Source: an uncultured Bacillota bacterium (GTDB lineage: Bacteria; Bacillota_I; Bacilli_A; RFN20; CAG-449). From it: 64,000 nt of DNA. The notes beneath the pieces are model-generated. The model was not told where the DNA came from, made no database searches, and saw only the letters and a program-made list of their open reading frames with translations. The first letter of the stretch is position 1. Each line of letters begins with the position of its first letter. Below are positions 2,355-49,992 of the stretch, one piece after another. A program made the translations under genes and the position numbers. Where the stretch lies: positions 17,278-81,277 of the forward strand of contig CABUOQ010000003.1 of NCBI GenBank assembly GCA_902493275.1. Reading direction: 5' to 3'.

Positions 2355-2356
2355 CT

Positions 2357-4870: not shown

Positions 4871-4886
4871 GTTATAAATAAAAAAT

Positions 4887-4910
4887 AAGGAGAGCCAATA
4901 ACTCTCCTTA
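4887..4910 (+). terminator. Possible terminator hairpin (AAGGAGAG-n8-CTCTCCTT) after the GH43 gene. Weak T-tract.
   Basis: Inverted repeat seen directly in the sequence. Confidence 0.35.
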
Positions 4911-4930
4911 TTAAAATAAAGGAAAAAAAT

Positions 4931-7114: not shown

Positions 7115-7153
7115 TATACATTAATTTTATTGTGATTTTAACTAAAAACAATT

Positions 7154-7178
7154 AAAAAAAGCCTATTTATAGGCGTTT
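7154..7178 (+). terminator. Rho-independent terminator-like hairpin (GCCTAT-tt-ATAGGC) with flanking A/T runs
   Basis: Inverted repeat downstream of the GH36 stop codon. Confidence 0.45.
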
Positions 7179-7295
7179 AAGTAACCGCTTACAGCAAAAT
7201 GTTTAGCGCATATAAATAGTGCCTAAGATTGATTTTATGCCTAATTTAAGGTTAAATATATATGTAGTAACATATTAATAAAGGAGTAAAAAAAT

Positions 7296-16299: not shown

Positions 16300-18129
16300 T
16301 TATTTTTTATTGACCCATACTAGCATATCGGTAGTTTCACGATTAGCAAAACAATAATATGGTATAAATTTTAATGTAGTTTTAATATATTTATAAGTTG
16401 AATATTCTTTGCCATTATCAAGTTTTCGGTACCCTTCTAGTGATAAGGTGTTCATTTTATAAGTTTCGTTATATTCTATTTTTATATCATGAGTCTTTTT
16501 TACAAATAGAGCATTTAAATTTTCACCATTATCAATACCTTCTAAGCAATACACAATCATGCCATATAATAAAGCATATTTATTTTGGCAATATGAGTTA
16601 TTTGGATTTGCCTCAATGAAAAATGGTTTAACATTAAAATCTATATTGATTTTAGAATTAACTTTTTCATTTTTAAATATAAGATATCCATTTTTAACAC
16701 CTAAATATTTACACCCGGTAACATTGATAATTGGTTTTTTACTATACCATGGTAAGCGTATTTTTAAGAAATTGTTGGAATCAGCTTTATACTCTACTTC
16801 AATTTTAAATTCTTTTGGAAATTGTGATTTTAAAACAATCTCTTTGTTAGTAAAATGTAAAGTGCTTGAGATAAACTGATTTATATATATATCATTATTT
16901 TCTTCATAGTATATATATTTGCTAATAGAGGCTATTGTTCTTGCAATATTTGGAGGGCAACAAGAACATTCAAAAAGTTCTACTCGATGGGTTATCGGCA
17001 ATTTTTGCTTCCAAATATCTTTGACAGAGGTTTCTTTATTTATTTCTTTTAAACGTATTTCTAGAGGATTCTCATAAAAGAAAGCTTTACCATCTAAAGA
17101 GGTCGAGGATAAGAATCCGTTATATAAAATTCTTTCTATTTGATCATGATATTCTTTTTTATGCTTTAAATTATATAAATCAAATAAGAACATCATTTCA
17201 CCAATAGAAGCACATGATTCACTATAAGCCGTTAATGGTGGAAGGTCGTGAGGAATAGTAAATATTTCTCCAGCTCGATAAGAACCGATTGAGCCTGTTA
17301 TATATTGTTTAGTTAATAAATCCGCATAAAGCTTATTAAGCGAGGAATAGATGGCTTTATCTTTGTTTATATCAGCATATTTAGCCATTCCGTCATATAA
17401 ATACATAGCTCTTACAGCATGCCCTTCAACACTATTTAATTCTCTTATAGGGGCATTATCTTGAGCATAGTATTTATTTGCAAACTCTTCGTAATAATCT
17501 TTTTCATTAGCACCTCTTTTTTCTAAAAAGAAACTGGCCATATTAAAATATTTTTTGTCACCAGTATATTTATATAAGCGTAACAAAGCTAATTCTATTT
17601 CCTCATGACCAGGAGTTACAAAATTAACATCATTATTTTTAATAAAGTGTTCATCGACAAACTCTAAGTATTTTTTTATGACATTAAGTAACACTTTTTT
17701 GTTCGTCGCTTGATCATAGGCTATTGCCGCTTCAATAAGATGACCAAGATTATATAATTCATGGTCACATCTGTTTTTTAAAATGTCATTTGGCCTAACT
17801 ACTTGGAAATAAGAATTGAAATAGCCATCTTTTTGTTGATGTGTTGCAATGCTATCTATCAACTGATCACATATTTGCTCATATTCAGCATATTTTTTTC
17901 GATCTTTAACTAGATAGTATGCTATAGCTTCAATTAGCTTTGCTACATCGCTATCGTAGGCTCTATGATGACTATCATCCTTATTATCATAAGTAAAAAA
18001 TATAGCTTTAAATCTAGTATCATTAAATCTTTTAATGATATTTGGAATAGATGCATTAATATTTAATTCATATCTATCTTTCCAAAAACCATCTAGCAAA
18101 TCAATTTTTTCAAAGTTTATTTCACTCAT
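16300..18129 (-). CDS. GH127-like (DUF1680) beta-L-arabinofuranosidase-type glycoside hydrolase
   Basis: About 610 aa (alpha/alpha)6-barrel-like sequence with the Cys-rich ECSCCPPN motif, reminiscent of the Zn/Cys catalytic site of GH127. No signal peptide. Confidence 0.5.
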   Translation of the reverse strand: MSEINFEKIDLLDGFWKDRYELNINASIPNIIKRFNDTRFKAIFFTYDNKDDSHHRAYDSDVAKLIEAIAYYLVKDRKKYAEYEQICDQLIDSIATHQQKDGYFNSYFQVVRPNDILKNRCDHELYNLGHLIEAAIAYDQATNKKVLLNVIKKYLEFVDEHFIKNNDVNFVTPGHEEIELALLRLYKYTGDKKYFNMASFFLEKRGANEKDYYEEFANKYYAQDNAPIRELNSVEGHAVRAMYLYDGMAKYADINKDKAIYSSLNKLYADLLTKQYITGSIGSYRAGEIFTIPHDLPPLTAYSESCASIGEMMFLFDLYNLKHKKEYHDQIERILYNGFLSSTSLDGKAFFYENPLEIRLKEINKETSVKDIWKQKLPITHRVELFECSCCPPNIARTIASISKYIYYEENNDIYINQFISSTLHFTNKEIVLKSQFPKEFKIEVEYKADSNNFLKIRLPWYSKKPIINVTGCKYLGVKNGYLIFKNEKVNSKINIDFNVKPFFIEANPNNSYCQNKYALLYGMIVYCLEGIDNGENLNALFVKKTHDIKIEYNETYKMNTLSLEGYRKLDNGKEYSTYKYIKTTLKFIPYYCFANRETTDMLVWVNKK

Positions 18130-20918
18130 TGTTTTACTCCTATTATTATTTCATAGTTAATTTTCTTTTCAGTAAATTTATATTTGGTATCTAATTGTGG
18201 ACCACATGAATTTGATCCAATTCCAGACATTTTATAATCTAGTATTAAATGATTATAAGAATCTTCTATTAAGTCATAGCAATGTTTCTTACTAGAGAGT
18301 TCATTTATTGAGTATGGACTATAATTAAAAGAAGAAAATCCTTTAACTTGTATTTTAAGATTGTCTTTTTTTAGACTAATTTCATTAGCTAAATGTGAGT
18401 TATTTTCTTGAGGTTTAATATAATCAATCTCTGATTTTATGCAATCGTTAAATTCCCCAAACGTATCTAAATAATGCTTATCGAGATATGATTCATATGG
18501 ACCATATCCGATATATGAGTATTTATTAAACTTTTTGTTAATTTTAAAATCAAGTCCTAAGCGAGGTAAGTATTCTATTTCATTATTAATATTTAAGTTT
18601 AATGAAATTTTTAAAGAATTATTATTAATAGAGTATTCTATCTTTCCTTTTAGAATATTATCTATGGCGATGTTTGCAATAATTTTTTTAGAATCAATGA
18701 CATAAGATGAGCATTGAACATTATAATTGAATAAACCATATTTATTCCACTTATCTATTTCATATTGATCATTATCAATAGGAGCTCTAATTAATAATAA
18801 ATTTACATCTTTAGATAATGATTCATTATCATAAATTATCTCTTTAATTAATCCAGTGTTTTTATTGATACTGATGAATAATTTTTCTTTTGTAATGATA
18901 AGCTCTCGTTCTTTTTCTAATATCTGGAACTTACAAGGCTCAAACGATAAATCTATTGTCATGTCTTTTACAAATGATTCTTCATAGTACAAGTTGCTAT
19001 TTACAAATACCTTGAAATTTAATACAGGTTCATCGTTTGCACAAATAAGAACTTCTCCGTGAGGGCTTAAAGAATCTATTTTTAATTTATGGTCATTATA
19101 ATAAACAATAATGTTATTAACAGTATGAAAATTGAATCTACTGATTAAGTAATAGTTATTACCATCTTTTTTTATTTTTAATTCGCTGTAAGCGGATTTT
19201 AATTCCAACATGCTTGTATGTGGTTTTCTTTTATAGTCAATTAAACCATCAACACAAAAGTTTCCACTATGGATTGATTCATTAAAATCGCCACCATATC
19301 CAGGCGTATTTTTATTAAAGTTAATTGGAAAAAGATGATCATTAAATTCCCAAACAAATCCTCCAATACATTGTTTGTGATTATAAAAATATTCAACATA
19401 ATCATGTATATCGCCACAGCTATTCCCCATCGCGTGAGAAAATTCGCAAAGGAGAAGCGGACGATTATCCTTTTTTATTGTTTCATCCATTTTCTCTAAG
19501 GATGAATACATTTGAGATATTAAATCTAATTTATAATTATTTCTTTCGCTATGAGAAGTATAAAGAGACTCATAATGAATAAATCTTTGTGATTCTTTTT
19601 CCTTCATCATTTTGATTCCTTTAATAATTATTTGACCATATCCAGATTCATTACCTGCGGAGAAAGAAATAATGCTAAAACGATTATGATCGCGCATCAT
19701 ACTTCTATTTAATCTATCAAATATAACTTTTTCAAATATAGGATTATCAGTTATAATATCAAAATCATTAGCGTCATATTGTCCGCTATAACGAACAATT
19801 CCATGGCATTCAATATCTGCTTCTAACATAACATATAATCCATATTCATCGCAAAGATATAAAAATTCTGGAGAAGAGGGATAATGAGATGTTCGTACAG
19901 CGTTAATATGATGTTCTTTCATAATTTGAATATCTCTTATATAATCATCTTTTGAAAGATAAAACCCAGTTTCATAATTACTATCATGATGGTTAACACC
20001 TAATAATTTTATTTCTCGATCATTTATTTTTAGACAAGAACTAAGTTCAATAAATCTTAGCGCGATATAATCATAAATAACTTCGTCACCGGTTTTAATT
20101 GTCATATTATATAGATAAGGTTCTTCATTATTCCATAATTTAGCATTTTTAATCGTAAAAGCTATTTTATTTGAAGATGACTTAATATTTATAATTTTAT
20201 TATTGCTCGCATCGAATACTTCGATGGTTTTAATTAATTTTGGAGCGATAAAATCAATAGTAACATTAACGCCATTATTATCTTTTACATAATTAACATA
20301 ATATGAAGTAATATGCTTTATATCACGTTCTAAGATATATACGTCTCTAAATAAACCAGATAAGCGGAACTTATCTTGGCATTCGAAATATGTTCCTACA
20401 CATGTCTCATACACAAAGACAATTATTTCATTTACACCATCATATAAATATTTAGTAATATCAAATTCGCTTGTGCAATGTGATACTTGATCAAATCCGA
20501 TAAAGTGATTGTTTAAGTATACATAGATACAACTATCTTTGCCTTCAAAATTTAAATAATATTTTTGGTTGATATTTTTTTTGAATATAAATGATTTACG
20601 GTAAACCCCATAATTAGAGTCATCAATAAATGGAGGTTTGATGTCAATTAGATAGTGATCGTTTACATAGCAAATATTACCATATCCATATACTTGATAA
20701 TTGCAAGGGACCTTAATTTTATTAAAAGAATCGTTTATGTTAAATTTTTCGTTTTTTAAATAATAGTGAAAATCCCAATCGCCATTTAATAAGGTAATTC
20801 TACTACCACCTTTATAAACGCTTTTCTTATCATGTATTCTTTTCGGACAGTAAAAATTTCTATCAATTAATCGATTTACTGAGATATGGTTTATGTCTTT
20901 GTGATAAGAATGCTTCAT
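18126..20918 (-). CDS. Beta-galactosidase, GH2 family
   Basis: GH2 TIM-barrel motif NAVRTSHYPSSPEFLYLCDEYGLYVMLEADIECHG. 930 aa. Confidence 0.8.
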   Translation of the reverse strand: MKHSYHKDINHISVNRLIDRNFYCPKRIHDKKSVYKGGSRITLLNGDWDFHYYLKNEKFNINDSFNKIKVPCNYQVYGYGNICYVNDHYLIDIKPPFIDDSNYGVYRKSFIFKKNINQKYYLNFEGKDSCIYVYLNNHFIGFDQVSHCTSEFDITKYLYDGVNEIIVFVYETCVGTYFECQDKFRLSGLFRDVYILERDIKHITSYYVNYVKDNNGVNVTIDFIAPKLIKTIEVFDASNNKIINIKSSSNKIAFTIKNAKLWNNEEPYLYNMTIKTGDEVIYDYIALRFIELSSCLKINDREIKLLGVNHHDSNYETGFYLSKDDYIRDIQIMKEHHINAVRTSHYPSSPEFLYLCDEYGLYVMLEADIECHGIVRYSGQYDANDFDIITDNPIFEKVIFDRLNRSMMRDHNRFSIISFSAGNESGYGQIIIKGIKMMKEKESQRFIHYESLYTSHSERNNYKLDLISQMYSSLEKMDETIKKDNRPLLLCEFSHAMGNSCGDIHDYVEYFYNHKQCIGGFVWEFNDHLFPINFNKNTPGYGGDFNESIHSGNFCVDGLIDYKRKPHTSMLELKSAYSELKIKKDGNNYYLISRFNFHTVNNIIVYYNDHKLKIDSLSPHGEVLICANDEPVLNFKVFVNSNLYYEESFVKDMTIDLSFEPCKFQILEKERELIITKEKLFISINKNTGLIKEIIYDNESLSKDVNLLLIRAPIDNDQYEIDKWNKYGLFNYNVQCSSYVIDSKKIIANIAIDNILKGKIEYSINNNSLKISLNLNINNEIEYLPRLGLDFKINKKFNKYSYIGYGPYESYLDKHYLDTFGEFNDCIKSEIDYIKPQENNSHLANEISLKKDNLKIQVKGFSSFNYSPYSINELSSKKHCYDLIEDSYNHLILDYKMSGIGSNSCGPQLDTKYKFTEKKINYEIIIGVKQ

Positions 20919-31741: not shown

Positions 31742-34700
31742 ATGGATAATTATTATATTGGATTAGATTTAGGAAGCGACTCAGTAGGATGGGCGGCTAC
31801 TGATGAAAATTATAATCTTTTAAAACTAAATCGAAAATCTGCTTTTGGGGCAAGAATTTTTTCTGCTGCAAATGGATGTGTTGAGCGAAGATCCTTTCGT
31901 TCTTCCAGAAGAAGGATGGCAAGAAGAAAATATCGAATTCATTTATTAAATGAGTTATTGTGTGAAGAAATTTCAAAAACTGATGATACATTTTTCCTTC
32001 GTTTATCAAATTCAATGTATAAATTAGAGGATAAAAAACATTTAGGAAAAAGTTTGCTTTTTAAATCAATTGATGAAGAAAAGCAATTTAATAAACTTTA
32101 CCCTACAATTTGGCATTTAAGGCAAAAGTTAATATATGATGATGAAATTGCTTTTTCAAATATAAAAAATGTTTATTTTGCACTTCATCATATCATTAAA
32201 TATCGGGGAAATTTCATAAGTGAGAATGATATTTCTAGCAAAGGGTTCAACTATGAAAGATTAAATGATTTAAATAATGTTTTAAAATCTTCTTTGGAAA
32301 ACGAAGATGATGAGCCTATATTTGATGGCGATATTATCTATGGTACTTCAGAAAATTGGAGTAAAATAGAAAGCATTCTAAGTAATAAAGAATTAAATGC
32401 TAAAAATAAGCAAAAACAATTAAAAGAATTATTTAATTATAAAAACAAAAATGATTTGATAGATTTATTTATTATTATTGTAACTGGTGGTAAGAAAAAA
32501 TTTAATGATATAGATATTTGCTTTAATGATTCATTTGACGATAAAGAAGATGAGATACAAGCTTCTCTTGGTGAACAATATGATGTTGTTTTGATTGCAA
32601 AAGAAATGTTTGATTATATTTATGTTAAAAAATTAATGGGAGAACATAAATATCTATCCGATTCCATGGTAGATTTATATGATAAGCATGCGCGGGATTT
32701 AAAACTTCTTAAATCTCTGATTAAAAAACTCGACTTAAAATTGCAATTAACTGATAAAAAAAGTAATTATTATGCAATTTTTAAAAAGAATAAAATAGAT
32801 GAAGATAATAAAAAACAACAAAATAACGAGGAAGATAAAAATAGTAATAAAAATAAAAAGGGGTTAAATAACTACCCTTCTTATGTTGGTCATAATTCAT
32901 GTGAAACTAAATGCAATATAGAAGATTTCAATGATACAATAAAAAAATTGATTATAGATAATAAACAAGCTCTTGAAGAAATTGATTTGGATACGACAAA
33001 ATATATTTTAGAACAAGTCGAAAATAAAACTTTTTTGAAGACAATTGCAAGTTATACAACAAGTGCTATACCTCATCAACTTCATGAAAATGAATTAAAA
33101 GTTATTTTAAAAAATGCTAAGAGCAGATATCCAACAATTTTTGCAAATGATTTAAATGAAAAAATTATTAAACTTTTTCTTTTTAGAGTGCCATATTACT
33201 ATGGTCCACTTAATAGTGAAAGCCCATATTCTAATTTAGAAAAGAAAGATAAATATGCTAAAGTTTATCCTTGGAATGTAAATGAAATAATTGATGATAA
33301 TAAAACAAGACAAAAGTTCATGGCTAAATTAACTAATAAATGCCAATATTTAGAAGAATGTAATGTATTACCAAAATCATCATTACTATATGAAGAATAT
33401 ATGATATTAGATCGTTTAAATACAATGATTGTTAATGGTGAAAGACTAAATCATGAATTAAAAGATAAATTATATAAAGAAATTATTTCTAAAAAGAAAA
33501 CCACGTTAGCAAATATACAAAAATTGCTATCAAAAGTTTATAATTTTAATGAAAATGAAGTAATAATAAGCGGTGTGAATTTGGATGTCGCTTTTGAAGC
33601 AGTAACACATTATACTTTGAGTAAAGAGTTTGATTTACCAAAAGATTATAAAATGCTTGAAGAGTTGATTAATTATTCAACAATTTTTGCGGATGATAAA
33701 AAAGAACTAGAGAGATTTATTAGAAGTAACTACTCTTTTCTTTCGGATGCACAAATAAAGTGTATTAAATCATTGGGTACTAAAAAATGGGCTTCATTCT
33801 CTAGAGAATTATTAGATGGCATTACTGTAGCGGATGAGTTAGGTGAAGTAAATACGATAATTGGATTTATGAGAAACCAAAGTAAAAACTTTCAAGAAGT
33901 ATTAAATGGATATGGATTTAATAAGGTAATAGATATCAAAAATCGAGAATTTAGAGGGGATAAAACTAAATCAAAAATAATAAAAGAAAAATTAGATGCT
34001 GTTCCGGCAATATTTAGAAGAACAATCAACCAAACTTTGTTAATATTAGATGATATTGTTTCGGTTGCAAAAAAGGAGCCATCGAAAATTTTTGTTGAAG
34101 TTACAAGAGAAGACTTAAAAAACAAAGATAAAATTGAGTCTAAAAAGAGAAGAAAAGAATTAGAAGAATTTTTAAAGTCTATTAAAAATGATAAAGAATA
34201 CTATTATAAGCAAGCACATGAATTGCTGGAAGAATTAAATGATGAAAGAATCTCAGATTTAAGATTAAAAGGTAAGCATTTATATTTATATTTTAAACAA
34301 TTAGGTCTAGACCTTTATAGTGGTGAAAAGATTAATATTGAAGATGTTTTAAATTCAGATAAATATGATATTGATCATATCGTTCCTCAAAAATTAATTA
34401 AAGATGATTCTTTAGATAATATGGTTTTAGTCAATAGAGAAGCTAATCAAAAAATTAAAAAAGATACATATCCTTTGCCACTTTCAATTAGAAATGAAAA
34501 AACAAAATCTATTTGGAAATATTTAGTTGAAAAAAAAGCAATTACTCAAAAAAAATATGATAATTTGGTGCGTGATACAGAGATAACAGATTCTGAATTA
34601 TCACAATTTATTAATAGGCAAATTAATAATATAAATGCATCAAATAAAGTTGTTAAGGATATTATTAATATCAAATACCCTAATACAGATGTTATTTTTT

Positions 34701-35872
34701 CTAAGGCACAATATCCTAGCTTTATAAGAAAAGAATATAGAATTGTTAAAGTAAGGGAATTAAATGATGCCCATCATGCTGTTGATGCATATTTAAACAT
34801 TGTGTCAGGCAATATCTTATATACCACTTTTTCGAATATGTCTATGATTATGGTTCGAAAAAAAATTAATGATATAAGCCAAGATGATAATAAAGAAAAA
34901 ACAGATAATATGGAAAGTGTCATTAAATATAATTTTAAAAAGAATAATCTTTTAGATCGCGTTAAGAAAACATGTTTTAGAAAAGATGCTTTAATAACAT
35001 ATAAATGTGATTTTGTTAATTCCGGATTTTATGATATGACGATATATAAAGCAGAAAATAATTTAATACCAATTCATACAAAAAAAGATAATCCGATGAA
35101 TGATGTTACAAAATATGGTGGATATAGTTCTGCAAAAAGTTCGAAATTAGCATTGATAGAATATACAAAAGGAAAGAAAGTTGTTAGAAAAATTAATGCT
35201 GTAAAACCTATTTATGAAAAAATGTATAGTAATGATGAAGATAAATTCTTAAAAATAATTGCTAATGATGATAAAGCACAAAATATTAAATTATTAAGAT
35301 ATATACCTATAAATCAGAAAATAATATATGATGGTGGATATTATTTATTATTAAATAATAATGAAACTAGAAATAAACTAAAATTGATTTATCAAAACTA
35401 TATTGATAATGATTTATTATATTATTTTACAAAAGCTAAAAAATTGATAGATATTGAAGATAATGAAGCTCATCCAGAGCAACTTGAGCAGAAAATTATA
35501 ACAAGTAGAAATGGAAAACCTTTTGTTATTTCAAAGGAAAAGAACTTAGAAGTAATGAAAGCATTATATAATAATGCATTTAATAAAGTTTATGATTCAA
35601 GTAGGACTATATTAGATTTAAGAAATGATGTAATTTTGGATATTTTTGAATCACAAACCTTATCAAAGCAACTTGAAATTATATTAGATTCGATGATTTT
35701 TATGTCAAGAAATTATAATTCAAGTGAACTATATAATACTAAAAAATACAAATGTTTTGAAAAATTGATTAAGACAAATACAAATTTAGTATCTAAAAAT
35801 ATATCAAATAATAAAATTTATCTTATTCATGATTCTCCTTCTGGGTTATATTCTTATAAGGAAAAGATTTAA
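31742..35872 (+). CDS. cas9: Cas9 endonuclease (type II-A)
   Basis: 1376 aa. RuvC-I (IGLDLGSDSVGWA). HNH (YDIDHIVPQ ... NMVLVNREANQ). RuvC-III (NDAHHAVDAYLN). Arg-rich bridge helix. Confidence 0.92.
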   Translation: MDNYYIGLDLGSDSVGWAATDENYNLLKLNRKSAFGARIFSAANGCVERRSFRSSRRRMARRKYRIHLLNELLCEEISKTDDTFFLRLSNSMYKLEDKKHLGKSLLFKSIDEEKQFNKLYPTIWHLRQKLIYDDEIAFSNIKNVYFALHHIIKYRGNFISENDISSKGFNYERLNDLNNVLKSSLENEDDEPIFDGDIIYGTSENWSKIESILSNKELNAKNKQKQLKELFNYKNKNDLIDLFIIIVTGGKKKFNDIDICFNDSFDDKEDEIQASLGEQYDVVLIAKEMFDYIYVKKLMGEHKYLSDSMVDLYDKHARDLKLLKSLIKKLDLKLQLTDKKSNYYAIFKKNKIDEDNKKQQNNEEDKNSNKNKKGLNNYPSYVGHNSCETKCNIEDFNDTIKKLIIDNKQALEEIDLDTTKYILEQVENKTFLKTIASYTTSAIPHQLHENELKVILKNAKSRYPTIFANDLNEKIIKLFLFRVPYYYGPLNSESPYSNLEKKDKYAKVYPWNVNEIIDDNKTRQKFMAKLTNKCQYLEECNVLPKSSLLYEEYMILDRLNTMIVNGERLNHELKDKLYKEIISKKKTTLANIQKLLSKVYNFNENEVIISGVNLDVAFEAVTHYTLSKEFDLPKDYKMLEELINYSTIFADDKKELERFIRSNYSFLSDAQIKCIKSLGTKKWASFSRELLDGITVADELGEVNTIIGFMRNQSKNFQEVLNGYGFNKVIDIKNREFRGDKTKSKIIKEKLDAVPAIFRRTINQTLLILDDIVSVAKKEPSKIFVEVTREDLKNKDKIESKKRRKELEEFLKSIKNDKEYYYKQAHELLEELNDERISDLRLKGKHLYLYFKQLGLDLYSGEKINIEDVLNSDKYDIDHIVPQKLIKDDSLDNMVLVNREANQKIKKDTYPLPLSIRNEKTKSIWKYLVEKKAITQKKYDNLVRDTEITDSELSQFINRQINNINASNKVVKDIINIKYPNTDVIFSKAQYPSFIRKEYRIVKVRELNDAHHAVDAYLNIVSGNILYTTFSNMSMIMVRKKINDISQDDNKEKTDNMESVIKYNFKKNNLLDRVKKTCFRKDALITYKCDFVNSGFYDMTIYKAENNLIPIHTKKDNPMNDVTKYGGYSSAKSSKLALIEYTKGKKVVRKINAVKPIYEKMYSNDEDKFLKIIANDDKAQNIKLLRYIPINQKIIYDGGYYLLLNNNETRNKLKLIYQNYIDNDLLYYFTKAKKLIDIEDNEAHPEQLEQKIITSRNGKPFVISKEKNLEVMKALYNNAFNKVYDSSRTILDLRNDVILDIFESQTLSKQLEIILDSMIFMSRNYNSSELYNTKKYKCFEKLIKTNTNLVSKNISNNKIYLIHDSPSGLYSYKEKI

Positions 35873-36732
35873 TGCCGTTTAGAACAGTCATAATTTCTTC
35901 ACATTCTAAATTAGAATATTCTTTAAATTATCTTGTTTATAAAACAATAGAAGAAACCAAAAAAATAGTATTAGATGAAATTCATACATTAATTATAGAA
36001 TCAACTATGGTTTCAATAACATCATCCTTATTAGTTGAATTGATGAATAAAAAGATAAAAGTTATTTTTTGTGATGAAAAAAAGAATCCGCATTCAGAAT
36101 TAATCCCATATTATGGTAATTCTCAAACAGTAACAAGAATTGAAGAACAAATTAATTGGTCTAAAGACATAAAAGATAGTATTTGGCAAAGAATTGTCAT
36201 TGAAAAAATTAAAAATCAAGCAAAAGTTTTATCTTTAATTGATAAAAAAGAAGCTGATAAATTATTTCAATACTCTAATGAAGTAGAAATAGGTGACATA
36301 ACAAATCGCGAAGGGCATGCGGCTAAAGTTTATTTTAATCGACTCATGGGACTTAATTTTTCTCGCGGAGGATCTGATAAAAGAAATATATATTTAAATT
36401 ATGGTTATTCTATTTTATTAGCACAAATAAATAGATGTATTGTATCTAAAGGTTATTTAACTCAACTAGGTATTCATCATAAAAATGATTTTAATCAATT
36501 TAATCTTTCGTGTGATTTTATTGAGCCTCTTAGACCGATTGTAGATAAATTATCTCTTAGTTTAAATGATGAAAACTACAAATCTGAATTAATTAATATG
36601 CTGAATACGTGCTTTATTATTAATGGCCAAAACCAATCATTGCATAATGCAATTGAAATATACTGTGCTTCTATTTTTAGAAGTTTAAATACAGGTACAA
36701 TTAATGAAATTGTATTTATTGAGATAATATGA
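35872..36732 (+). CDS. cas1: Cas1 integrase
   Basis: Colinear with S. pyogenes Cas1 (NREGHAAKVYFN, NYGYSILL, IEPLRPIVD). 1-nt overlap with cas9. Confidence 0.9.
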   Translation: MPFRTVIISSHSKLEYSLNYLVYKTIEETKKIVLDEIHTLIIESTMVSITSSLLVELMNKKIKVIFCDEKKNPHSELIPYYGNSQTVTRIEEQINWSKDIKDSIWQRIVIEKIKNQAKVLSLIDKKEADKLFQYSNEVEIGDITNREGHAAKVYFNRLMGLNFSRGGSDKRNIYLNYGYSILLAQINRCIVSKGYLTQLGIHHKNDFNQFNLSCDFIEPLRPIVDKLSLSLNDENYKSELINMLNTCFIINGQNQSLHNAIEIYCASIFRSLNTGTINEIVFIEII

Positions 36733-42785: not shown

Positions 42786-42802
42786 AATTGGAGAATTTTA
42801 AT

Positions 42803-45445
42803 ATGAATAAAGAAAAAAAACTATTGTTTACACTAATTGGAGTTATATTAATTTCTTCATGTAATGCTAATATAAGTAGCAATTCATCAAGTAGCTCTTC
42901 ACAAGAAGAAATATCGTCATTAGTATCTTCTGATGACAAAGGAGATTATAATTTGAAAAATGATTTATTAAATCTTAATTTAAAAGGATATATTGGTACA
43001 AATTTAAAAAATAATATTAAGTATTGGCAAAAATCTGCATATCAAAATAATCCTAATATTATTACTCAAATTAGGGTTGCAAATACTAGCGACGAATTAG
43101 TGTCATTATCTAATATATTAGGAAATGATTATTTTGGTGTAGATTCATCATCTGAAATAGATATACTTGAAAAAGATGGAGAAAAATATATTGGATGGAT
43201 ATTAAAATCTTTACCAACATCATATGGAGATCGTGATTTTAGATTTTCTAATGATCCTCACGCTATAACATCATGGAAAGGGGCGAAGGAACTGTTAATC
43301 CATGTTGATAATAGTCAAATAGATGGAATAACCTCATTAAGGTTAGCATTCGAAGAAAATACTATAGGAAGAGAATCGTATTCTTTAATCAAAGATTCTG
43401 AAGTTTATCTTTTAAATAATGGAAAAAGTGAAACTATAACAACATTAGATAATGGATATATAGAAATTCCGCCTAAATTTGTAGGATATGTTGCTTTACC
43501 TCTAGATATAAATCATTTTGCTTGTTATTGGAGTGAAGGTGGAAATAAAATCTTAGAACTAGATAATGTTGTTCAATTTCAAATTTCAATCAAAGGTACC
43601 ACAAAAAATATTGATAAACCATTTTATATGAATAATTTTGCAATTGTTGGTGATTTTGAAGGAAATGATTTATCAAATGAAATTGGATTTGAAGAAAATA
43701 GCAAAATAGTATGGGATTTATCTTTTGTAGAAAAGAGAAAAGAAAAAAGTGAAGAACCATCATCATTAGCTTGGTATGGAGAATTTGTAGGTAAATTATT
43801 AACGGGAATTGCATTTTCTTATCGTGCAGAACCTAGCGAAGATTTATTTAATGAGGCAGAAACTATTATTAATGATTTGTTTGAAGCACAAGGAGATGAT
43901 GGATATTTAGGTGTTTTTAAAGGTGGGGCACGTTATTCTATTTCTTCGAGCAATTGGGACTTGTGGAATCAGTATCATTGCGTTGTTGGGCTCTTAGAGT
44001 GGTATAAAAATAGCGGTAATGAAAAAGCATTAAGTATTGCTAAGAAAACTTTAGATTGTATATATGAAACCTTTAAAAATCGTAGCTATATTGTTAGTGG
44101 TGGTTTTGAAACTAATCGTGGAATTGCCCATGGCTTTGCTTTAATGTATCAAATTTCACGTGAAGAAAAATATCTTAAAGAAGCTGAAAGAATTATTCAA
44201 CAAGATTGTCGAGATAATAATGGTTGGTATAATATGGCTTTAAAAGGAAACCATTTTTATAAATCTTCAAGTGCAAGATGGGAAGTTCTTCATATGATAA
44301 TGACATTAGCAATTCTTTATCAAGAAACACAAAATGAAGAGTATTTTTCAGTGATGGATATAATTTGGCATGATATTTTAGAAACAGACATTCATAATGA
44401 TGGTGGTTTTACTACAAATGAAGGTGCAATTGGAGATCCATATCGAGATGGGGTTATTGAAACTTGTTGTAGTATTGCATGGAATGCATTTAGTAATGAA
44501 TTTTTAAAAATTAATAAAGATGTTTCAATAGTCGATGAAATAGAAAGAACATATTTTAATGCTATTCAAGGATCGTTATTAGATAATGATAAATATTGTA
44601 CATACAATACCCCAGTAGATGGAGTATTAGGAAGTTGTGGTGGATATAATGGGCTTAGGGTAGCTTCTCAACAAGATATTTCTTTCCAATTTAATAATGG
44701 TTCTCCTGATATGAATTGTTGCCAAGCAAATTTAGCTCGAGGATTAGGACAAATTTCTGAATGGGCTATTATGGCTGAAGATAATGACTTATATTTAAAC
44801 TATTATGGTAGTTCTACAATGGAAACTAGATATAAAGATGAAGTATTAATTATTGATCAAGAGACAAATTATCCAATTAATGGCAAAATAAAATTAACAA
44901 TATCTGGATTAAGTAAGCCAACCGAAATTAATTTGAAGTTAAGAATTCCTTCTTGGAGTAAAGATTCTAAAGTTAAGTGTGGTGGCAAAGAATATAGCGT
45001 TGAGTCTAATCAGTATTTTTCTGTTGATAAATTGTTTAATAATGGTGATATTATTGAATTAGATTTAGGTATGAGTTTTACTTGCTGGAAAGGTGAAAAG
45101 TCTAAAGAAGGAAAAACATCATTATATTATGGACCGATATTATTAACGCTTGATGAATACTATATGAATAAATCAAATTATAATATTTCGTTTGATAAAA
45201 ATATTGAATTTTCAGCCAGTAAGTTCGCTGAAGCAAAAATTATTGACGCGAAAAGTGATAGAGCATGGTTATTTGTTGACGTTCCTTATAATAATAATTA
45301 TATTCGACTTGTTGATTTTGCTTCAGCAGGAAAGTTTAATGGAAATTCACAGCCATATAGATATTATTCTTGGCTAAACATTAATAATTTAATTGATAAC
45401 GAATCAGATGATATTGTAAATCGTTGGAAACTTAACTTATACTAA
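42803..45445 (+). CDS. Lipoprotein with C-terminal GH127/DUF1680-like glycoside hydrolase domain
   Basis: Lipobox ISSC and Ser-rich linker. C-terminal region with TCCSIAWN and NCCQANLARG Cys motifs resembling 16300..18129. Start at the ATG 9 nt after GGAG (track ORF starts at the in-frame TTG at 42788). Confidence 0.5.
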   Translation: MNKEKKLLFTLIGVILISSCNANISSNSSSSSSQEEISSLVSSDDKGDYNLKNDLLNLNLKGYIGTNLKNNIKYWQKSAYQNNPNIITQIRVANTSDELVSLSNILGNDYFGVDSSSEIDILEKDGEKYIGWILKSLPTSYGDRDFRFSNDPHAITSWKGAKELLIHVDNSQIDGITSLRLAFEENTIGRESYSLIKDSEVYLLNNGKSETITTLDNGYIEIPPKFVGYVALPLDINHFACYWSEGGNKILELDNVVQFQISIKGTTKNIDKPFYMNNFAIVGDFEGNDLSNEIGFEENSKIVWDLSFVEKRKEKSEEPSSLAWYGEFVGKLLTGIAFSYRAEPSEDLFNEAETIINDLFEAQGDDGYLGVFKGGARYSISSSNWDLWNQYHCVVGLLEWYKNSGNEKALSIAKKTLDCIYETFKNRSYIVSGGFETNRGIAHGFALMYQISREEKYLKEAERIIQQDCRDNNGWYNMALKGNHFYKSSSARWEVLHMIMTLAILYQETQNEEYFSVMDIIWHDILETDIHNDGGFTTNEGAIGDPYRDGVIETCCSIAWNAFSNEFLKINKDVSIVDEIERTYFNAIQGSLLDNDKYCTYNTPVDGVLGSCGGYNGLRVASQQDISFQFNNGSPDMNCCQANLARGLGQISEWAIMAEDNDLYLNYYGSSTMETRYKDEVLIIDQETNYPINGKIKLTISGLSKPTEINLKLRIPSWSKDSKVKCGGKEYSVESNQYFSVDKLFNNGDIIELDLGMSFTCWKGEKSKEGKTSLYYGPILLTLDEYYMNKSNYNISFDKNIEFSASKFAEAKIIDAKSDRAWLFVDVPYNNNYIRLVDFASAGKFNGNSQPYRYYSWLNINNLIDNESDDIVNRWKLNLY

Positions 45446-45449
45446 TATT

Positions 45450-46394
45450 ATGGAAAAATTCTATGATAAAACATTAAATATTTCTTTAAGAAATGAAAGG
45501 CAATGTAAAGCAATTTTTAAAGCTTTAAATAATAAAACTAGAAGAGATATATTAAGATTGCTATCTAAAAAAGGACCATTAAGTATTCAAAGTATTTCTT
45601 TTAATTTGGATTTGCCATTATCAACTATTTCTGAACATGTATCGATATTATTAAAATCCGGTGTTATATCATCTTTTAAAAAAAATTCTGAACGTGGGCA
45701 AACAAAAATTGTATTTAGGCAATACGATAAAATAGATATTTCATTAAATGATTATGCGGATAATTTAATTGAAACTGATAATACAATTATGGAAATTCCG
45801 ATTGGATCTTATTCCGGATTCGATATCCATCAATTATGTGGAATGGTATGTAATGAAGGATATATTGGTAGCCGTGATAGCAGTTTATGTTTTCATCATA
45901 GCGAAAGATTTAAAGCACAATTAATTTGGCTTGATTATGGATATTTAGAATATAAAATACCATTAGATTGCTTAACTAAAAAAGAAATATTTTCATTTTC
46001 ATTCTCACTTGAACTCTGTTCTGAAGCACCTGGTTATAATGAAAATTGGAAATCGGACATTTTTTTTGAAATAAATGATCAAGAGATAGGTTATTTTACA
46101 TCACAAGGTGATTATGGTAGGCGTAGAGGAAAATTGACTCCTTCTTGGTGGTCTGGTGATGTAACATCATATGGAGTGTTAAAACAAATTGAAGTCAATG
46201 AAGACGGAAGCTTTATTGATGGAATAAAAGTGTCAGATATAACTATATATGACTTAAATATCGAGGCAAATAAAGTGCTAAAATTAAGATTTGGAGTGAA
46301 AGAAAATGCAAAAAATCGTGGGGGATTAAATCTTTTCGGTGATAGTTTTGGTGACTATCCTCAACATATTATTTTGATTATTTCGTATAGATGA
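45450..46394 (+). CDS. ArsR/SmtB-type winged-helix regulator fused to a C-terminal domain of unknown function (about 220 aa)
   Basis: N-terminal ArsR-like HTH (NNKTRRDILRLLSKKGPLSIQSISFNLDLPLSTISEHVSILLKSGVI). Rest unrecognised. Confidence 0.5.
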   Translation: MEKFYDKTLNISLRNERQCKAIFKALNNKTRRDILRLLSKKGPLSIQSISFNLDLPLSTISEHVSILLKSGVISSFKKNSERGQTKIVFRQYDKIDISLNDYADNLIETDNTIMEIPIGSYSGFDIHQLCGMVCNEGYIGSRDSSLCFHHSERFKAQLIWLDYGYLEYKIPLDCLTKKEIFSFSFSLELCSEAPGYNENWKSDIFFEINDQEIGYFTSQGDYGRRRGKLTPSWWSGDVTSYGVLKQIEVNEDGSFIDGIKVSDITIYDLNIEANKVLKLRFGVKENAKNRGGLNLFGDSFGDYPQHIILIISYR

Positions 46395-47247: not shown

Positions 47248-47669
47248 TGACTCTTTTTAATCAGTTTCAAACATTTATAGGATCAATTATTTTAGGAATG
47301 CTATTTAGTTTTATTTGGTCCTTATTTAATCGAGTGTTTTATTCGAAAAAACTGTTTATTATTAGATTAATATTTGAAATAGCTTTGATTTGTAGTTTAA
47401 CATTTACATATTATATTTTTCTTTCTAGATTTGGTCATGGAATATTTAATGTATTTTATGTTCTCGCATTATTTTTAGGATTGATATTATATTATGAATT
47501 TTATGCTTATAATTTTGAGGTTTTATTTGAAAAGGCTGCTTCTTCTTTATATAAAACGATAATCTATCCAATAAAATTGAAAAAAAAGAAGTTTCGTGAT
47601 AAATTAAAATCAAGGAAGAAAAAGCATGGCAAAAAAAGTTCAATCAAAAAAAGTCAACCGCATACTTAG
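47247..47669 (+). CDS. yabQ: Spore cortex biosynthesis membrane protein YabQ
   Basis: Small polytopic membrane protein directly after yabP (1-nt overlap). Lys-rich tail. Confidence 0.65.
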   Translation: MTLFNQFQTFIGSIILGMLFSFIWSLFNRVFYSKKLFIIRLIFEIALICSLTFTYYIFLSRFGHGIFNVFYVLALFLGLILYYEFYAYNFEVLFEKAASSLYKTIIYPIKLKKKKFRDKLKSRKKKHGKKSSIKKSQPHT

Positions 47670-47910
47670 CTTGATATGTATTGCAATATTTGCGATATCA
47701 TTAGTATGTGTTGGCTTTTTTGCAGTTGAAATTATAAATCAAAATAAGCAGAAACAAGATTTATTGAGACGCCAAGAAGAAATTACACAAGAATATAACC
47801 ATATACGTGATATCTATGATAATAATGTAGATGACGATGGATATTTTAATGTTTATACCGATGGTGATATGATTGTATATGGCACTGGATCAACAATTCA
47901 AATTAGTTAA
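47626..47910 (+). CDS. divIC: Septum formation initiator (DivIC/FtsB family)
   Basis: Single N-terminal TM followed by a coiled coil (QNKQKQDLLRRQEEITQEY). Conserved position after yabQ. Confidence 0.6.
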   Translation: MAKKVQSKKVNRILSLICIAIFAISLVCVGFFAVEIINQNKQKQDLLRRQEEITQEYNHIRDIYDNNVDDDGYFNVYTDGDMIVYGTGSTIQIS

Positions 47911-47917
47911 GATATAA

Positions 47918-49357
47918 TTATTGAATATTGTCGAAATGACCTATATAAAGAGGTAAGTTATTTCTATCATATATTACATAAATAAAAGGTTGGTTTAATC
48001 TTATTTCATAAGTTAAGATAGATGTATTTTTAGCTCCTGCTCCCATTGTAACTGATTTTATAGTTGTTCCATCTTCAGTAAAAGAAATTTTGTTTTTTTG
48101 CTTTAATTCGGATAAAGTTACATCGTGATAATCAGTAAATACACCATCGAGAGAATTGTTGTTAAATAAATGATTAAATCCGACATTTTTTAATGTGGTT
48201 ATAAAATCACATGATGATGTTGATGTAAATTTTGGCAGAGTAAGATTAATTATTTTAGGACTTTTTACTAAATTGTCTTCGTTTTCATTAATAAAATTGA
48301 TGTTTGACAATAATGAATAGATATTATCTGCGGAGTTTTTAGGAATAAGATATTGAATTTTTAAATCATTTTTATAATAATCATATACACTATAATATTT
48401 ATCATAGTCATATATTTTGCCATTATAGGAGTGATTCATATAAGTAGTTTTATATGGAACACCATCTGTTGGATAAAAGTAATCAAAGGTGTTTTCACTT
48501 TGGAAAAATTTTGTTCTCCAATAATTGTTAAAATATAAAGTGGTAAAATAATAAATTAAGTAATCATGGTTTAAATTTAAGAAATCTTTATCGATGAAAT
48601 TACTTTCGTTTGTTTTTTGATTTACCCAATCTAACATTAATTCAATATCTTGTTCGTTTTTAAAATCTAGTTGAAAAGCTTCAGTATAGTATGATTGTAA
48701 TTCATTAATAAAATTTTGGTTAGGTTCATATTCATTGCTTAAAAATATTCCATTATATAATTGTATTGAACCATCATTATTATAGAAAAAATTGTTTCTA
48801 TAAAGGTTTCTATAATTTTCTTTTCTTCGGAAACGATTTAAACCAAGAATTTCATCAAATTCATTTATTACCATATTATTTTTGCTTGATAGAGAAATAA
48901 TTTCTAAATTTGAATAAAGTGATAATGGTGAAAACGAAAAATTTTCTTTTTTATCATAAGCTTGATAAATATTATAAGAGAAGTCCCTTATTGCTGAAAG
49001 ATATTCATCTTCTACTTTATAGTTGCTTAATTCTCCAGAAGGGTATGTTATCTTATTTAAACTTTTAAAAGAAGAGTTCTGAATAGCTTCAACTTCATTT
49101 AAAGTGTAGTGTCTAGCATACACTCTTTGTCTAGAGGTGGTAGTTAGCATCATTAAAAAAGGTGTGGCAATAAATACTAAGACAATTGTACAAGAGACAA
49201 TAGTAACAATATTTTTAGTTATTTTGCTTTTTTTGTTTTTATGTAATTTTTTTTGATATTGATCATAATCTATGCGATTTTCTAATTCAGTGAAATCGAA
49301 TTTTAAATTTGTTGTATCATTTATTTTATTAAGTATTTTCTTTTCGTCTTTATTCAT
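47918..49357 (-). CDS. Membrane-anchored serpin-domain protein with anti-sigma-factor-like topology (short cytoplasmic N-terminus, one TM, extracellular serpin)
   Basis: TM segment TIVSCTIVLVFIATPFLMMLTT. Serpin motifs FSFSPLSLYSNLEIISL. Hinge EDGTTIKSV. C-terminal LNQPFIYVIY fits the serpin PROSITE signature. Confidence 0.65.
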   Translation of the reverse strand: MNKDEKKILNKINDTTNLKFDFTELENRIDYDQYQKKLHKNKKSKITKNIVTIVSCTIVLVFIATPFLMMLTTTSRQRVYARHYTLNEVEAIQNSSFKSLNKITYPSGELSNYKVEDEYLSAIRDFSYNIYQAYDKKENFSFSPLSLYSNLEIISLSSKNNMVINEFDEILGLNRFRRKENYRNLYRNNFFYNNDGSIQLYNGIFLSNEYEPNQNFINELQSYYTEAFQLDFKNEQDIELMLDWVNQKTNESNFIDKDFLNLNHDYLIYYFTTLYFNNYWRTKFFQSENTFDYFYPTDGVPYKTTYMNHSYNGKIYDYDKYYSVYDYYKNDLKIQYLIPKNSADNIYSLLSNINFINENEDNLVKSPKIINLTLPKFTSTSSCDFITTLKNVGFNHLFNNNSLDGVFTDYHDVTLSELKQKNKISFTEDGTTIKSVTMGAGAKNTSILTYEIRLNQPFIYVIYDRNNLPLYIGHFDNIQ

Positions 49358-49371
49358 ACAAAAACCTCCTC

Positions 49372-49875
49372 TTATAAAAGTTTAGATTTAATTTTTTTAA
49401 TACTTCTAAAGTAAGTTGTTTTAATTGTCGATACGGGTTTATTTAATTGAATGGATATTTCTTTAAAAGTATAATCATAAATTAAATGAAGGTAAAATAT
49501 TTTTTTCTCAAAATCATCTAGGATTATATCAATATCGTAATATATGCTATTGTCTTTAGTCTCGCTGGCTAAATAGTCGAAACAATTATCTGCTTGAACA
49601 ATATTTTTAGTTTTTTTCAAAAAATTAATAGCGGCATTTTTAGCACAGGTTGTTAAATAATTTTTTATTGAAGAGTTAATGTTTTCTATGTGATTAAAAA
49701 AATATAAAAAAGTATCGTTTGTTAGATCTTTTATATCATCGATATCCTTGATATAATTTCCGATGACAAAACCGACTAAATGACAATATTTATTGTAAAT
49801 TAACTCAAATTGTTTTTTTAATCCTTTTTGATTAGAAGATTTAGAAATTTTCTTTATTTGATGCGCATCAGACAT
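49372..49875 (-). CDS. Small sigma-70/ECF-family RNA polymerase sigma factor
   Basis: 167 aa. Region-2-like FELIYNKYCHLVGFVIGNY and region-4 HTH FKEISIQLNKPVSTIKTTYFRSIKKIK. Immediately upstream of the serpin gene on the same strand. Confidence 0.6.
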   Translation of the reverse strand: MSDAHQIKKISKSSNQKGLKKQFELIYNKYCHLVGFVIGNYIKDIDDIKDLTNDTFLYFFNHIENINSSIKNYLTTCAKNAAINFLKKTKNIVQADNCFDYLASETKDNSIYYDIDIILDDFEKKIFYLHLIYDYTFKEISIQLNKPVSTIKTTYFRSIKKIKSKLL

Positions 49876-49992
49876 AATAAATATTTACCTTTCTATTAAT
49901 TAAGACAATTTGATTTAAAAAAAAGTTTTAAAAAATTATACAAAGTAATTCTTTCGACAAAAATAGCATGATGAATACATTACTATGATAGC

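Follow-up and report, generated by a model that had tools for sequence, protein, structure and literature searches.

Which function is served by a serpin that is anchored in a bacterial membrane and encoded directly behind the gene of a small sigma factor? This question is raised by a two-gene operon of an uncultured Bacillota bacterium (assembly GCA_902493275.1, contig CABUOQ010000003.1). The stretch analysed, hereafter called the window, comprises 64,000 nucleotides (nt) of this contig, and all positions without further label are counted in it. On its minus strand the sigma gene (49372-49875) is followed by the serpin gene (47918-49357). A preliminary description, made from the sequence alone, had proposed that both proteins form a sigma/anti-sigma pair able to sense proteases. 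The analysis reported here makes a sigma/anti-sigma pair with a serpin ectodomain quite probable, owing to the strict co-occurrence of both genes, their coupled loss, a spacing of the translational-coupling type, the topology of the membrane protein and the fact that no other regulator travels along with them.

The gene coordinates and the protein lengths given in the preliminary description, 167 and 479 amino acids (aa), are exact, whereas the intergenic gap measures 14 nt instead of the 15 nt first noted. This gap holds the ribosome-binding site of the serpin gene; in the majority of the other loci there is an overlap or a spacing of -8 to +5 nt. The operon consists of these two genes, with the flanking genes convergent and divergent, and its elements are the following:

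49901..49929, minus strand: putative autoregulatory promoter of the extracytoplasmic function (ECF) type, with -35 AAAAC, a 17-nt spacer and -10 TTGTCTTA, 33 nt before the sigma ATG.

49372..49875, minus strand: ECF (group 4) sigma-70 factor of 167 aa, recognised by Pfam and TIGR02937.

49365..49371, minus strand: ribosome-binding site GAGGAGG of the serpin gene, read directly from the sequence within the 14-nt gap.

47918..49357, minus strand: single-pass membrane protein of 479 aa with an extracytoplasmic serpin, putative anti-sigma factor (open reading frame, ORF; PF00079).

49211..49357, minus strand: cytoplasmic N-terminal segment, aa 1-49, proposed sigma-binding module (alignments, predicted helices, occurrence only together with the sigma gene).

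49148..49210, minus strand: transmembrane (TM) helix, about aa 50-70, oriented N-in/C-out (hydropathy maximum, positive-inside rule; helix 50-68 in the structural model).

48995..49147, minus strand: variable linker after the TM helix, aa 71-84, and conserved pre-serpin extension, aa 85-121 (alignment).

47930..48994, minus strand: serpin domain, aa 122-476 (PF00079, AlphaFold, Foldseek).

48011..48076, minus strand: reactive-centre loop (RCL), aa 428-449 (low model confidence, hinge alignment).

The first protein of the operon is an ECF sigma factor that contains the sigma-2 and sigma-4 regions only. These are recognised by the Pfam families Sigma70_r2 (29.6 bits, aa 27-90) and Sigma70_r4_2 (31.7 bits, aa 123-162), both above their cut-offs, and the protein reaches 53.1 bits with the sigma70-ECF family TIGR02937 (cut-off 42.9). 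None of the named ECF equivalogs reached its cut-off with the window sigma factor, and the nearest solved relative found with the family profile is SigW (5wuq, E=2e-12).

Its partner had been described as a protein with a cytoplasmic N-terminus of about 50 aa, one TM helix and an extracellular domain, and both hydropathy and the positive-inside rule bear this out. The most hydrophobic 19-residue segment begins at aa 50, and the 15 residues on either side of the helix contain seven Lys/Arg before it and three after it. The corresponding family means are 5.2 and 2.7, with more of these residues before the helix in 32 of 36 members, and this excess places the N-terminus inside and the serpin outside; the lipoprotein sister proteins likewise place their serpin outside the cell. 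Between codons 1 and 69 there is no alternative start codon, and therefore the N-terminal segment is necessarily translated if the TM helix is made.

The N-terminal segment follows the family consensus M-x-K-L-K-x-Q-F-K-x-D-F-E-...-L-x-F-D-x-x-x-L-E, which leads into a Lys/Arg-rich stretch, and the spacing of its hydrophobic residues is that of an amphipathic helix. An AlphaFold model of the window protein, built on 48 homologues, predicts helices at aa 3-16, 23-28 and 32-35, with a predicted local distance difference test (pLDDT) of about 70 over the first 20 residues. On the other side of the membrane, the pre-serpin extension comprises 35-40 aa of the form ...E-S-V-K...S-F-K-x-L-N-x-V-x-Y-P directly before helix A. 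Within its motif S-F-K-x-L-N-x-V-x-Y-P the residues F97, L100, N101 and P106 are invariant or nearly so, the pLDDT is 93-95 over aa 101-120, and the extension is also found in the lipoprotein sisters.

The ectodomain is a bona fide serpin, as the preliminary description had recognised from its motifs. PF00079 matches aa 122-476 with 149.2 bits (cut-off 27, E=2.4e-43) over model positions 2-368 of 370, and the motifs FSPLSLYS (aa 142-149), EDGT (aa 428-431) and LNQPFIYVIY (aa 454-463) are all present. L454, P457, F458 and Y460 are invariant across the family, and IRLNQPFIYVI (aa 452-462) fits the PROSITE-type serpin signature. In the AlphaFold model the pLDDT exceeds 90 over the serpin body and falls below 50 at aa 433-445, a part of the RCL that is predicted to be exposed and disordered. 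Foldseek ranks native tengpin first (2pee_A, E=3.5e-27, with a target-based TM-score of 0.81), and the E values of the top matches, namely native tengpin, antithrombin and alpha-1-antitrypsin, range from about 1e-27 to 1e-24. The core residues W194, F208, P289, K290, E342, G344, P369, F370 and G386 are presumably kept (alpha-1-antitrypsin numbering). Two changes in the shutter region (alpha-1-antitrypsin H334 to Gln and N186 to Ser/Thr) were considered as well and rejected as clade-specific features; by the residue mapping adopted, Gln at the first of these positions also occurs in relatives with a canonical hinge.

The weight of the argument rests on conservation. An alignment-based contig scan gave 80 loci from species-representative genomes, mainly metagenome-assembled genomes of uncultured gut and rumen Bacilli/Erysipelotrichales, and a contig scan of genomes with a single protein as query gave no matches. 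Among the 79 complete serpin ORFs there are 48 with a long N-terminus and a TM helix, 46 of which have an ECF sigma gene directly upstream on the same strand, at distances of -35 to +37 nt (most overlap or lie a few bases apart). In the two exceptions (L009 and L064) the ORF call seems to reach too far upstream of a signal or lipoprotein-type peptide. The other 31 serpins, which carry a lipoprotein signal, a signal peptide or a short anchor, all lack a sigma gene next to them. In the reciprocal scan, carried out on metagenome contigs with the sigma alignment, a serpin follows all 14 of the closest sigma relatives, and a more distant sigma (L085) precedes a divergent serpin. The co-conservation which the proposal demanded thus holds in both directions, and the pair is a conserved, self-contained cassette of uncultured gut and rumen Bacilli/Erysipelotrichales. 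Clustering at 90% identity gives about 50 clusters with the architecture of the window protein; at 50% identity there are about 95 representatives, most of them 467-544 aa long and aligned from the first profile positions, compared with about 32,700 serpin representatives overall in the same search.

In a neighbour-joining tree of the serpin domain, the unlinked serpins L001, L010, L005 with L009, and L024 with L035 stand at four places within the sigma-linked clade, whose deep branches are all sigma-linked, and each unlinked serpin inside the clade is devoid of both the sigma gene and the cytoplasmic module. As judged from these sequences, repeated joint loss of the gene and the module appears to be the simplest reading.

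Two further loci have a bearing on the link between serpin and sigma. Locus L048 carries two tandem sigma-serpin cassettes on one contig (3877-5848 and 6578-8631) whose distal RCLs are different. In L077 (399-3708) the serpin belongs to a different clade, with the hinge VEGAAYTMYV and a distinct cytoplasmic N-terminus (…AMNAIDDKYLEEA…), and overlaps the upstream ECF sigma gene by 11 nt; a second serpin lies upstream, with no sigma match in the 398 nt before it. L077 suggests that the link between serpin and sigma arose more than once, and because of the tandem pairs and this second clade the link is taken as functional and not accidental.

Two side observations concern L048: its contig is labelled Gemmiger formicilis, possibly through a binning error, and its differing loops are as expected for paralogues of different specificity.

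A close sister of the sigma factor (E=9e-54) is found in L001 (8103-9955, minus strand), where it overlaps by 4 nt a 445-aa single-pass protein with an RsgI_M (SEA-like) domain (PF23750, E=8.9e-22) and a long coiled-coil tail. The serpin of the same locus has neither sigma gene nor cytoplasmic module. This pair indicates that the sigma clade uses single-pass partners of a recognised anti-sigma architecture.

In 34 of 44 loci the sigma gene is preceded by a family motif with -35 CGAC(A/G)AAA and -10 TTGT(C/T/A)TTATT at a fixed spacing, in short form CGACAAAA-N17/18-TTGTCTTATT, and the more divergent pairs have GAAC/CGTC variants. As far as sequence can tell, this is a conserved bipartite promoter of the kind that marks ECF sigma factors (-35 AAC/GAC, -10 CGT/TGT). 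Scanning 590 kb of loci with a position weight matrix (PWM) recovered 41 own-operon promoters and one marginal other site; the matches in L054 and L121 that had been flagged as "other" are own-operon promoters too. For AAC-N17-TGTCTTA, 0.19 matches are expected in the 64 kb of the window, and the promoter is the single one present. The operon is probably autoregulated by its own sigma factor, to judge from this motif.

Other features of the upstream region were noted in passing. A TGTATAAT element of the extended -10 type lies at 49935-49942 (minus strand), about 25 nt upstream of the ECF-type promoter, and could give basal sigma-A-dependent transcription of the operon. In seven loci (L015, L017, L018, L020, L023, L045 and L054) the -10 element starts 17-18 nt before the annotated sigma start codon; in that subgroup either the transcript is nearly leaderless or the true start lies further downstream.

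In the window protein the hinge of the RCL is E428-D-G430-T-T-I433-K-S-V-T437, followed by the bait region M-G-A-G-A-K-N-T-S-I-L-T, and the family pattern of the hinge is E-D-G-[TS]-[TI]-[IV]-[KR]-S-[VL]-[TS]. This proximal hinge is the most conserved segment in the whole protein (top-residue frequency 0.79). The distal loop, with a top-residue frequency of 0.40, 39% gaps and indels, belongs to the most variable ones. A conserved hinge beside a hypervariable loop is the pattern expected for a loop that is attacked by proteases, and the RCL sequences fit a protease bait, perhaps one that senses cleavage and does not inhibit efficiently. Counting from P17 puts the predicted P1 of the window protein at about N444 and P2 at K443. 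In most relatives P1 varies and is followed by S-A-x-P, a segment that is absent from the window protein; its distal RCL (48011-48046, aa 438-449) is 2-5 residues shorter than in most of them.

The mechanism that would connect these elements is as follows. At rest, the amphipathic cytoplasmic N-terminus of about 45 aa would hold the sigma factor at the membrane as an anti-sigma factor, as its genetic context suggests, while the serpin ectodomain, according to sequence and model, displays an exposed RCL whose bait region is hypervariable. This loop would then be attacked by a protease outside the cell, most plausibly a digestive enzyme of the host or a microbial protease in gut or rumen, and loop cleavage, covalent trapping or both may drive the irreversible transition from the stressed to the relaxed state. 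By analogy with RsiV, RsiW and RsiP, the juxtamembrane region could thereby be exposed or destabilised and become subject to regulated proteolysis by a site-1 and then a site-2 protease. The freed sigma factor would transcribe its own operon and possibly genes elsewhere, so that more sigma factor and more surface serpin would be made in a sense-and-replenish loop. Within this scheme both sigma binding by the N-terminus and protease sensing by the ectodomain are inferred. The whole chain, from protease attack through fold change, proteolysis and sigma release to operon induction, is about as probable as its failure at one of these steps. A more specific version regards the serpin as a mechanism-based "suicide bait" sensor whose fold change is relayed to sigma release through freeing of the docked juxtamembrane extension and intramembrane proteolysis; it is put forward tentatively and falls somewhat short of an even prospect.

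Several observations weigh against this scheme or parts of it. One of them comes from the hinge. Inhibitory serpins have the P17-P9 consensus ExGTEAAAA, with small residues at P12-P9 (PMC8233489). In the clade P17 Glu, P15 Gly and P14 Thr/Ser are kept, whereas P12 is Ile/Val in 45 of 49 sequences, P11 Lys/Arg in 45 of 49 and P9 Val/Leu/Ile in 48 of 49. Bulky P12 residues slow loop insertion and favour substrate behaviour. The serpin of the preliminary description stands, but going by this hinge, non-canonical at P12, P11 and P9, classical protease trapping is uncertain and the idea of a classical inhibitory serpin has to be qualified. A canonical AAA-type hinge occurs in more distant unlinked bacterial serpins of the same dataset, and the non-canonical one is common to the unlinked lipoprotein sisters; because these sisters share it, it is a feature of the clade and not an adaptation to signalling. 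Its inward-facing residues are small or beta-branched (T, I/V, S, T) and alternate with the outward-facing ones, which is compatible with insertion as strand 4A. As beta-branched or charged residues replace Ala/Gly/Ser at P12, P11 and P9, the ectodomain may be a cleavage-triggered switch and not an efficient inhibitor. Cleavage of the RCL alone would leave the serpin body attached to the membrane, and a further site-1 event must be postulated.

The cytoplasmic segment adds to these objections. The protein has the attributes of a functional single-pass anti-sigma factor, being encoded directly downstream of the sigma gene, co-conserved with it and provided with a single N-in TM helix. The preliminary description had likened its topology to that of RsgI/RsiV-type anti-sigma factors. 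The resemblance is one of topology and does not extend to family membership, the N-terminus matching neither RsgI_N nor the anti-sigma families of Pfam. At E<=10 the only such family retrieved from Pfam was Sigma_reg_N (E=1.9, not significant), and Pfam and NCBIfam gave no similarity to zf-HC2, RsgI_N or any other anti-sigma profile. A hidden Markov model of the pre-TM segment recognised only serpin partners among 3483 ORFs of the loci, and a profile search of a database of 5.8 billion proteins retrieved five short fragments only. The segment, only about 45 aa long, is not recognised by any profile of a class I anti-sigma domain (zf-HC2/RsiW/RslA type). A motif that it seemed to share with the partners in L001 and L097 was discarded as an impression without statistical support. 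As for the promoter, the -35 element of the window has diverged from the family consensus and its PWM score lies below the threshold, PWM scans revealed no second copy in the 64-kb window that would point to a regulon, and there is no convincing extra promoter near the cassettes in the 590 kb of loci. No protease gene that would hint at the signal was found near the cassette. Besides, the Fisher test for a long N-terminus against an adjacent sigma gene (p about 6e-20) was made on loci that are phylogenetically non-independent, and the serpin-domain tree carries no support values.

Other explanations of the same cassette have to be considered. The strongest of them, although rather unlikely, is that the serpin is output and not sensor: the sigma factor would be freed when a generic signal of envelope or proteolytic stress acts on the TM helix or the linker, and the tethered serpin, kept at an autoregulated level, would protect the surface. 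The sigma-less lipoprotein and short-anchor sisters show that the ectodomain has a surface function on its own, those serpins of gut bacteria that have been characterised act protectively by inhibiting host proteases (PMC8233489, PMC8201313), and the vicinity of the cassette yielded no further member of a regulon. However, an effector fused to an anti-sigma factor would be destroyed on activation and lost just when it is needed, unless resynthesis outpaces the loss, and the non-canonical hinge speaks against an efficient inhibitor. It is the ectodomain, moreover, that does the sensing in characterised single-pass anti-sigma factors such as RsiV, RsgI and FecR.

That same hinge could lead to the opposite view, in which a non-inhibitory serpin, comparable to the hormone-binding and chaperone serpins, is the receptor of a ligand other than a protease and its RCL is no bait. 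The clade-wide deviation at P12, P11 and P9 would agree with this, as would a hinge conservation that exceeds what flexibility alone needs. It is nevertheless improbable: P17 Glu, P15 Gly, P14 Thr/Ser and the small-inward alternation are kept, the distal RCL is hypervariable with indels as is typical of protease-directed loops, and no ligand-binding feature was identified. Finally, there could be no anti-sigma factor at all, the sigma factor only driving a co-operonic surface serpin and being controlled elsewhere, with the N-terminal segment serving, for example, localisation or stability. That the N-terminus has no homology to any anti-sigma domain speaks for this explanation. We give it little credence: the cytoplasmic segment tracks the adjacent sigma gene, with apparent joint loss at four places of the tree, the spacing is of the translational-coupling type, the sigma gene is accompanied by no other candidate regulator, and the sister sigma of L001 has a recognisable single-pass partner of anti-sigma type in the same position.

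The proposed sigma/anti-sigma pair can be set beside several known systems. In Bacillus subtilis, Clostridioides difficile and Enterococcus, RsiV is the single-pass anti-sigma factor that senses lysozyme for sigma-V. The present pair resembles it in that an ECF sigma gene is co-transcribed with that of an N-in single-pass (putative) anti-sigma factor in a (probably) autoregulated operon, the ectodomain would directly engage a host hydrolase directed against the cell envelope, and activation is expected to proceed via regulated intramembrane proteolysis. However, the RsiV ectodomain is a lysozyme receptor of the DUF4179/DUF3298 type, whereas Serpin is the sole ectodomain match here; no N-terminal sequence similarity to RsiV was detected, and the window protein is no member of the RsiV family. 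The serpin, besides, would report an attack on a peptide bond by an irreversible change of fold, and not reversible binding.

RsgI, the partner of sigma-I in Clostridium thermocellum and Bacillus, consists of RsgI_N, a TM helix, the RsgI_M/SEA-like domain and a variable sensor. Both are modular single-pass proteins with interchangeable extracellular sensors, but the partner is here an ECF sigma factor and not sigma-I, and the window protein matches neither RsgI_N nor RsgI_M and falls outside the RsgI family; RsgI_M was found only in the sister-sigma partner of L001. By analogy, the logic of the proposed system would be closest to RsiV/sigma-V and its modularity closest to RsgI.

Among serpins, tengpin from Thermoanaerobacter tengcongensis (PDB 2pee/2vh4) is the closest solved relative in both sequence and fold. 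It is a Firmicute serpin as well and it also has an N-terminal extension before helix A. Lying over a hydrophobic patch, the extension of tengpin keeps the protein trapped in its metastable native state, and in the relaxed state it is displaced (PMC1905895). By positional analogy, this suggests that the pre-serpin extension might relay the fold change to the juxtamembrane region. An equivalence of the L100-N101 motif with the N40-L41-M42 trap of tengpin was considered and dropped, for the profile alignment to tengpin starts only at position 109 and leaves the motifs unaligned. Tengpin differs by its canonical small-residue hinge (ELGTKAGAVT) and has no reported TM anchor or sigma partner. Most bacterial serpins of Groups T and U have been described as inhibitory by sequence analysis (PMC8233489); the hinge of the present clade is unlike the canonical inhibitory ExGTEAAAA cited there.

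Related to the biological role, protease-inducible serpin expression is known from Bifidobacterium breve, where it is governed by an adjacent two-component system (PMC8012564). There too a gut bacterium couples extracellular proteases to the expression of a serpin through a regulator that adjoins the serpin gene. In that case sensing is left to a separate histidine kinase and the serpin is only the output, whereas here an ECF sigma factor is the regulator and the serpin itself is fused to a protein with a putative signalling role. Host proteases are the presumed counterparts of siropins, miropin and the Bifidobacterium longum serpin, which are extracytoplasmic proteins of gut or oral commensals (PMC8233489, PMC8201313). 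The localisation of these serpins, secreted or as lipoproteins, resembles that of the lipoprotein sisters of the clade, but no cytoplasmic signalling module and no sigma partner have been described for any of them.

The neighbourhood of the cassette contributes little to its interpretation. The preliminary description had placed the pair between divIC and spoIIE in a conserved sporulation neighbourhood. Profile searches do find yabP and yabQ upstream of the pair and spoIIE, tilS and ftsH downstream in the window, so the insertion is correct for this genome. It does not extend to other genomes: none of the other loci examined has spoIIE, yabP or yabQ near the cassette, and clustering of the flanking ORFs of 65 loci revealed no gene family recurring in more than four of them. 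A sporulation link was rejected given the absence of this synteny outside the window genome; the position is incidental, and the sigma-serpin cassette moves as a unit. Nor did the name divIC receive family support, the ORF in question having no DivIC/FtsB match in Pfam or NCBIfam and being named by position only:

47626-47910, plus strand: 94-aa "divIC" ORF, single-TM and coiled-coil-like, at the position occupied by divIC in Bacillus.

This ORF overlaps the end of yabQ by 44 nt and ends 7 nt from the stop codon of the serpin gene, in convergent orientation.

Some other features of the window were noted. A type II CRISPR-Cas locus occupies 31742-36732, with a 1376-aa Cas9 that has REC, HNH, RuvC and PI domains (Cas9_REC, E=1.4e-83), and a 286-aa ORF directly after the Cas9 gene (35872-36732) is probably cas1. 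Enzymes for plant polysaccharides are dense at 612-9173, 16300-20918 and 42788-45445, where two GH43 enzymes, a GH36 melibiase, a SASA esterase, two GH127 enzymes and a GH2 beta-galactosidase are encoded, a set consistent with a fibre-degrading gut or rumen organism of about 25% G+C. Directly 3' of a GH127 gene, at 45450-46394 (plus strand), there is a gene for a 314-aa protein with an N-terminal helix-turn-helix of the ArsR type; its C-terminal half (about 230 aa) is uncharacterised, and the protein may be a sugar-responsive regulator.

A full-text literature search retrieved no paper in which serpins are connected with anti-sigma or ECF factors, and the main text of the ECF re-classification paper makes no mention of serpins. 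The preliminary description knew of no characterised system with such a fusion, and in agreement with it no published description was met in the literature searched. Signalling by single-pass anti-sigma factors of ECF sigma factors is known as such; within that literature, a serpin as sensor domain is unprecedented and the mechanism would be unusual. The roles of bacterial serpins have been called "enigmatic", and prokaryotes are said not to use the serpin regulatory networks of eukaryotes (PMC8233489), a view that a serpin wired to a transcription factor, if true, would contradict. Were the "suicide bait" version correct, this would be the first case of a bacterial serpin used as a signalling receptor, and also the first of an anti-sigma factor that detects an enzymatic activity as its substrate, and paralogous pairs such as those of L048 would supply different protease specificities.

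Even if the serpin were only an output, the cassette would represent a new and widespread surface-protection module of uncultured Bacilli, with about 95 clusters at 50% identity. With two genes, a defined promoter and naturally diversified loops, it could become a source of orthogonal protease biosensors. If the sensing role is true, ECF sigma factors would gain a new kind of input, an irreversible, activity-based sensing comparable to the sensing of lysozyme by RsiV, and the cassette would offer a testable model of how gut and rumen Firmicutes perceive the proteases of their hosts or competitors.

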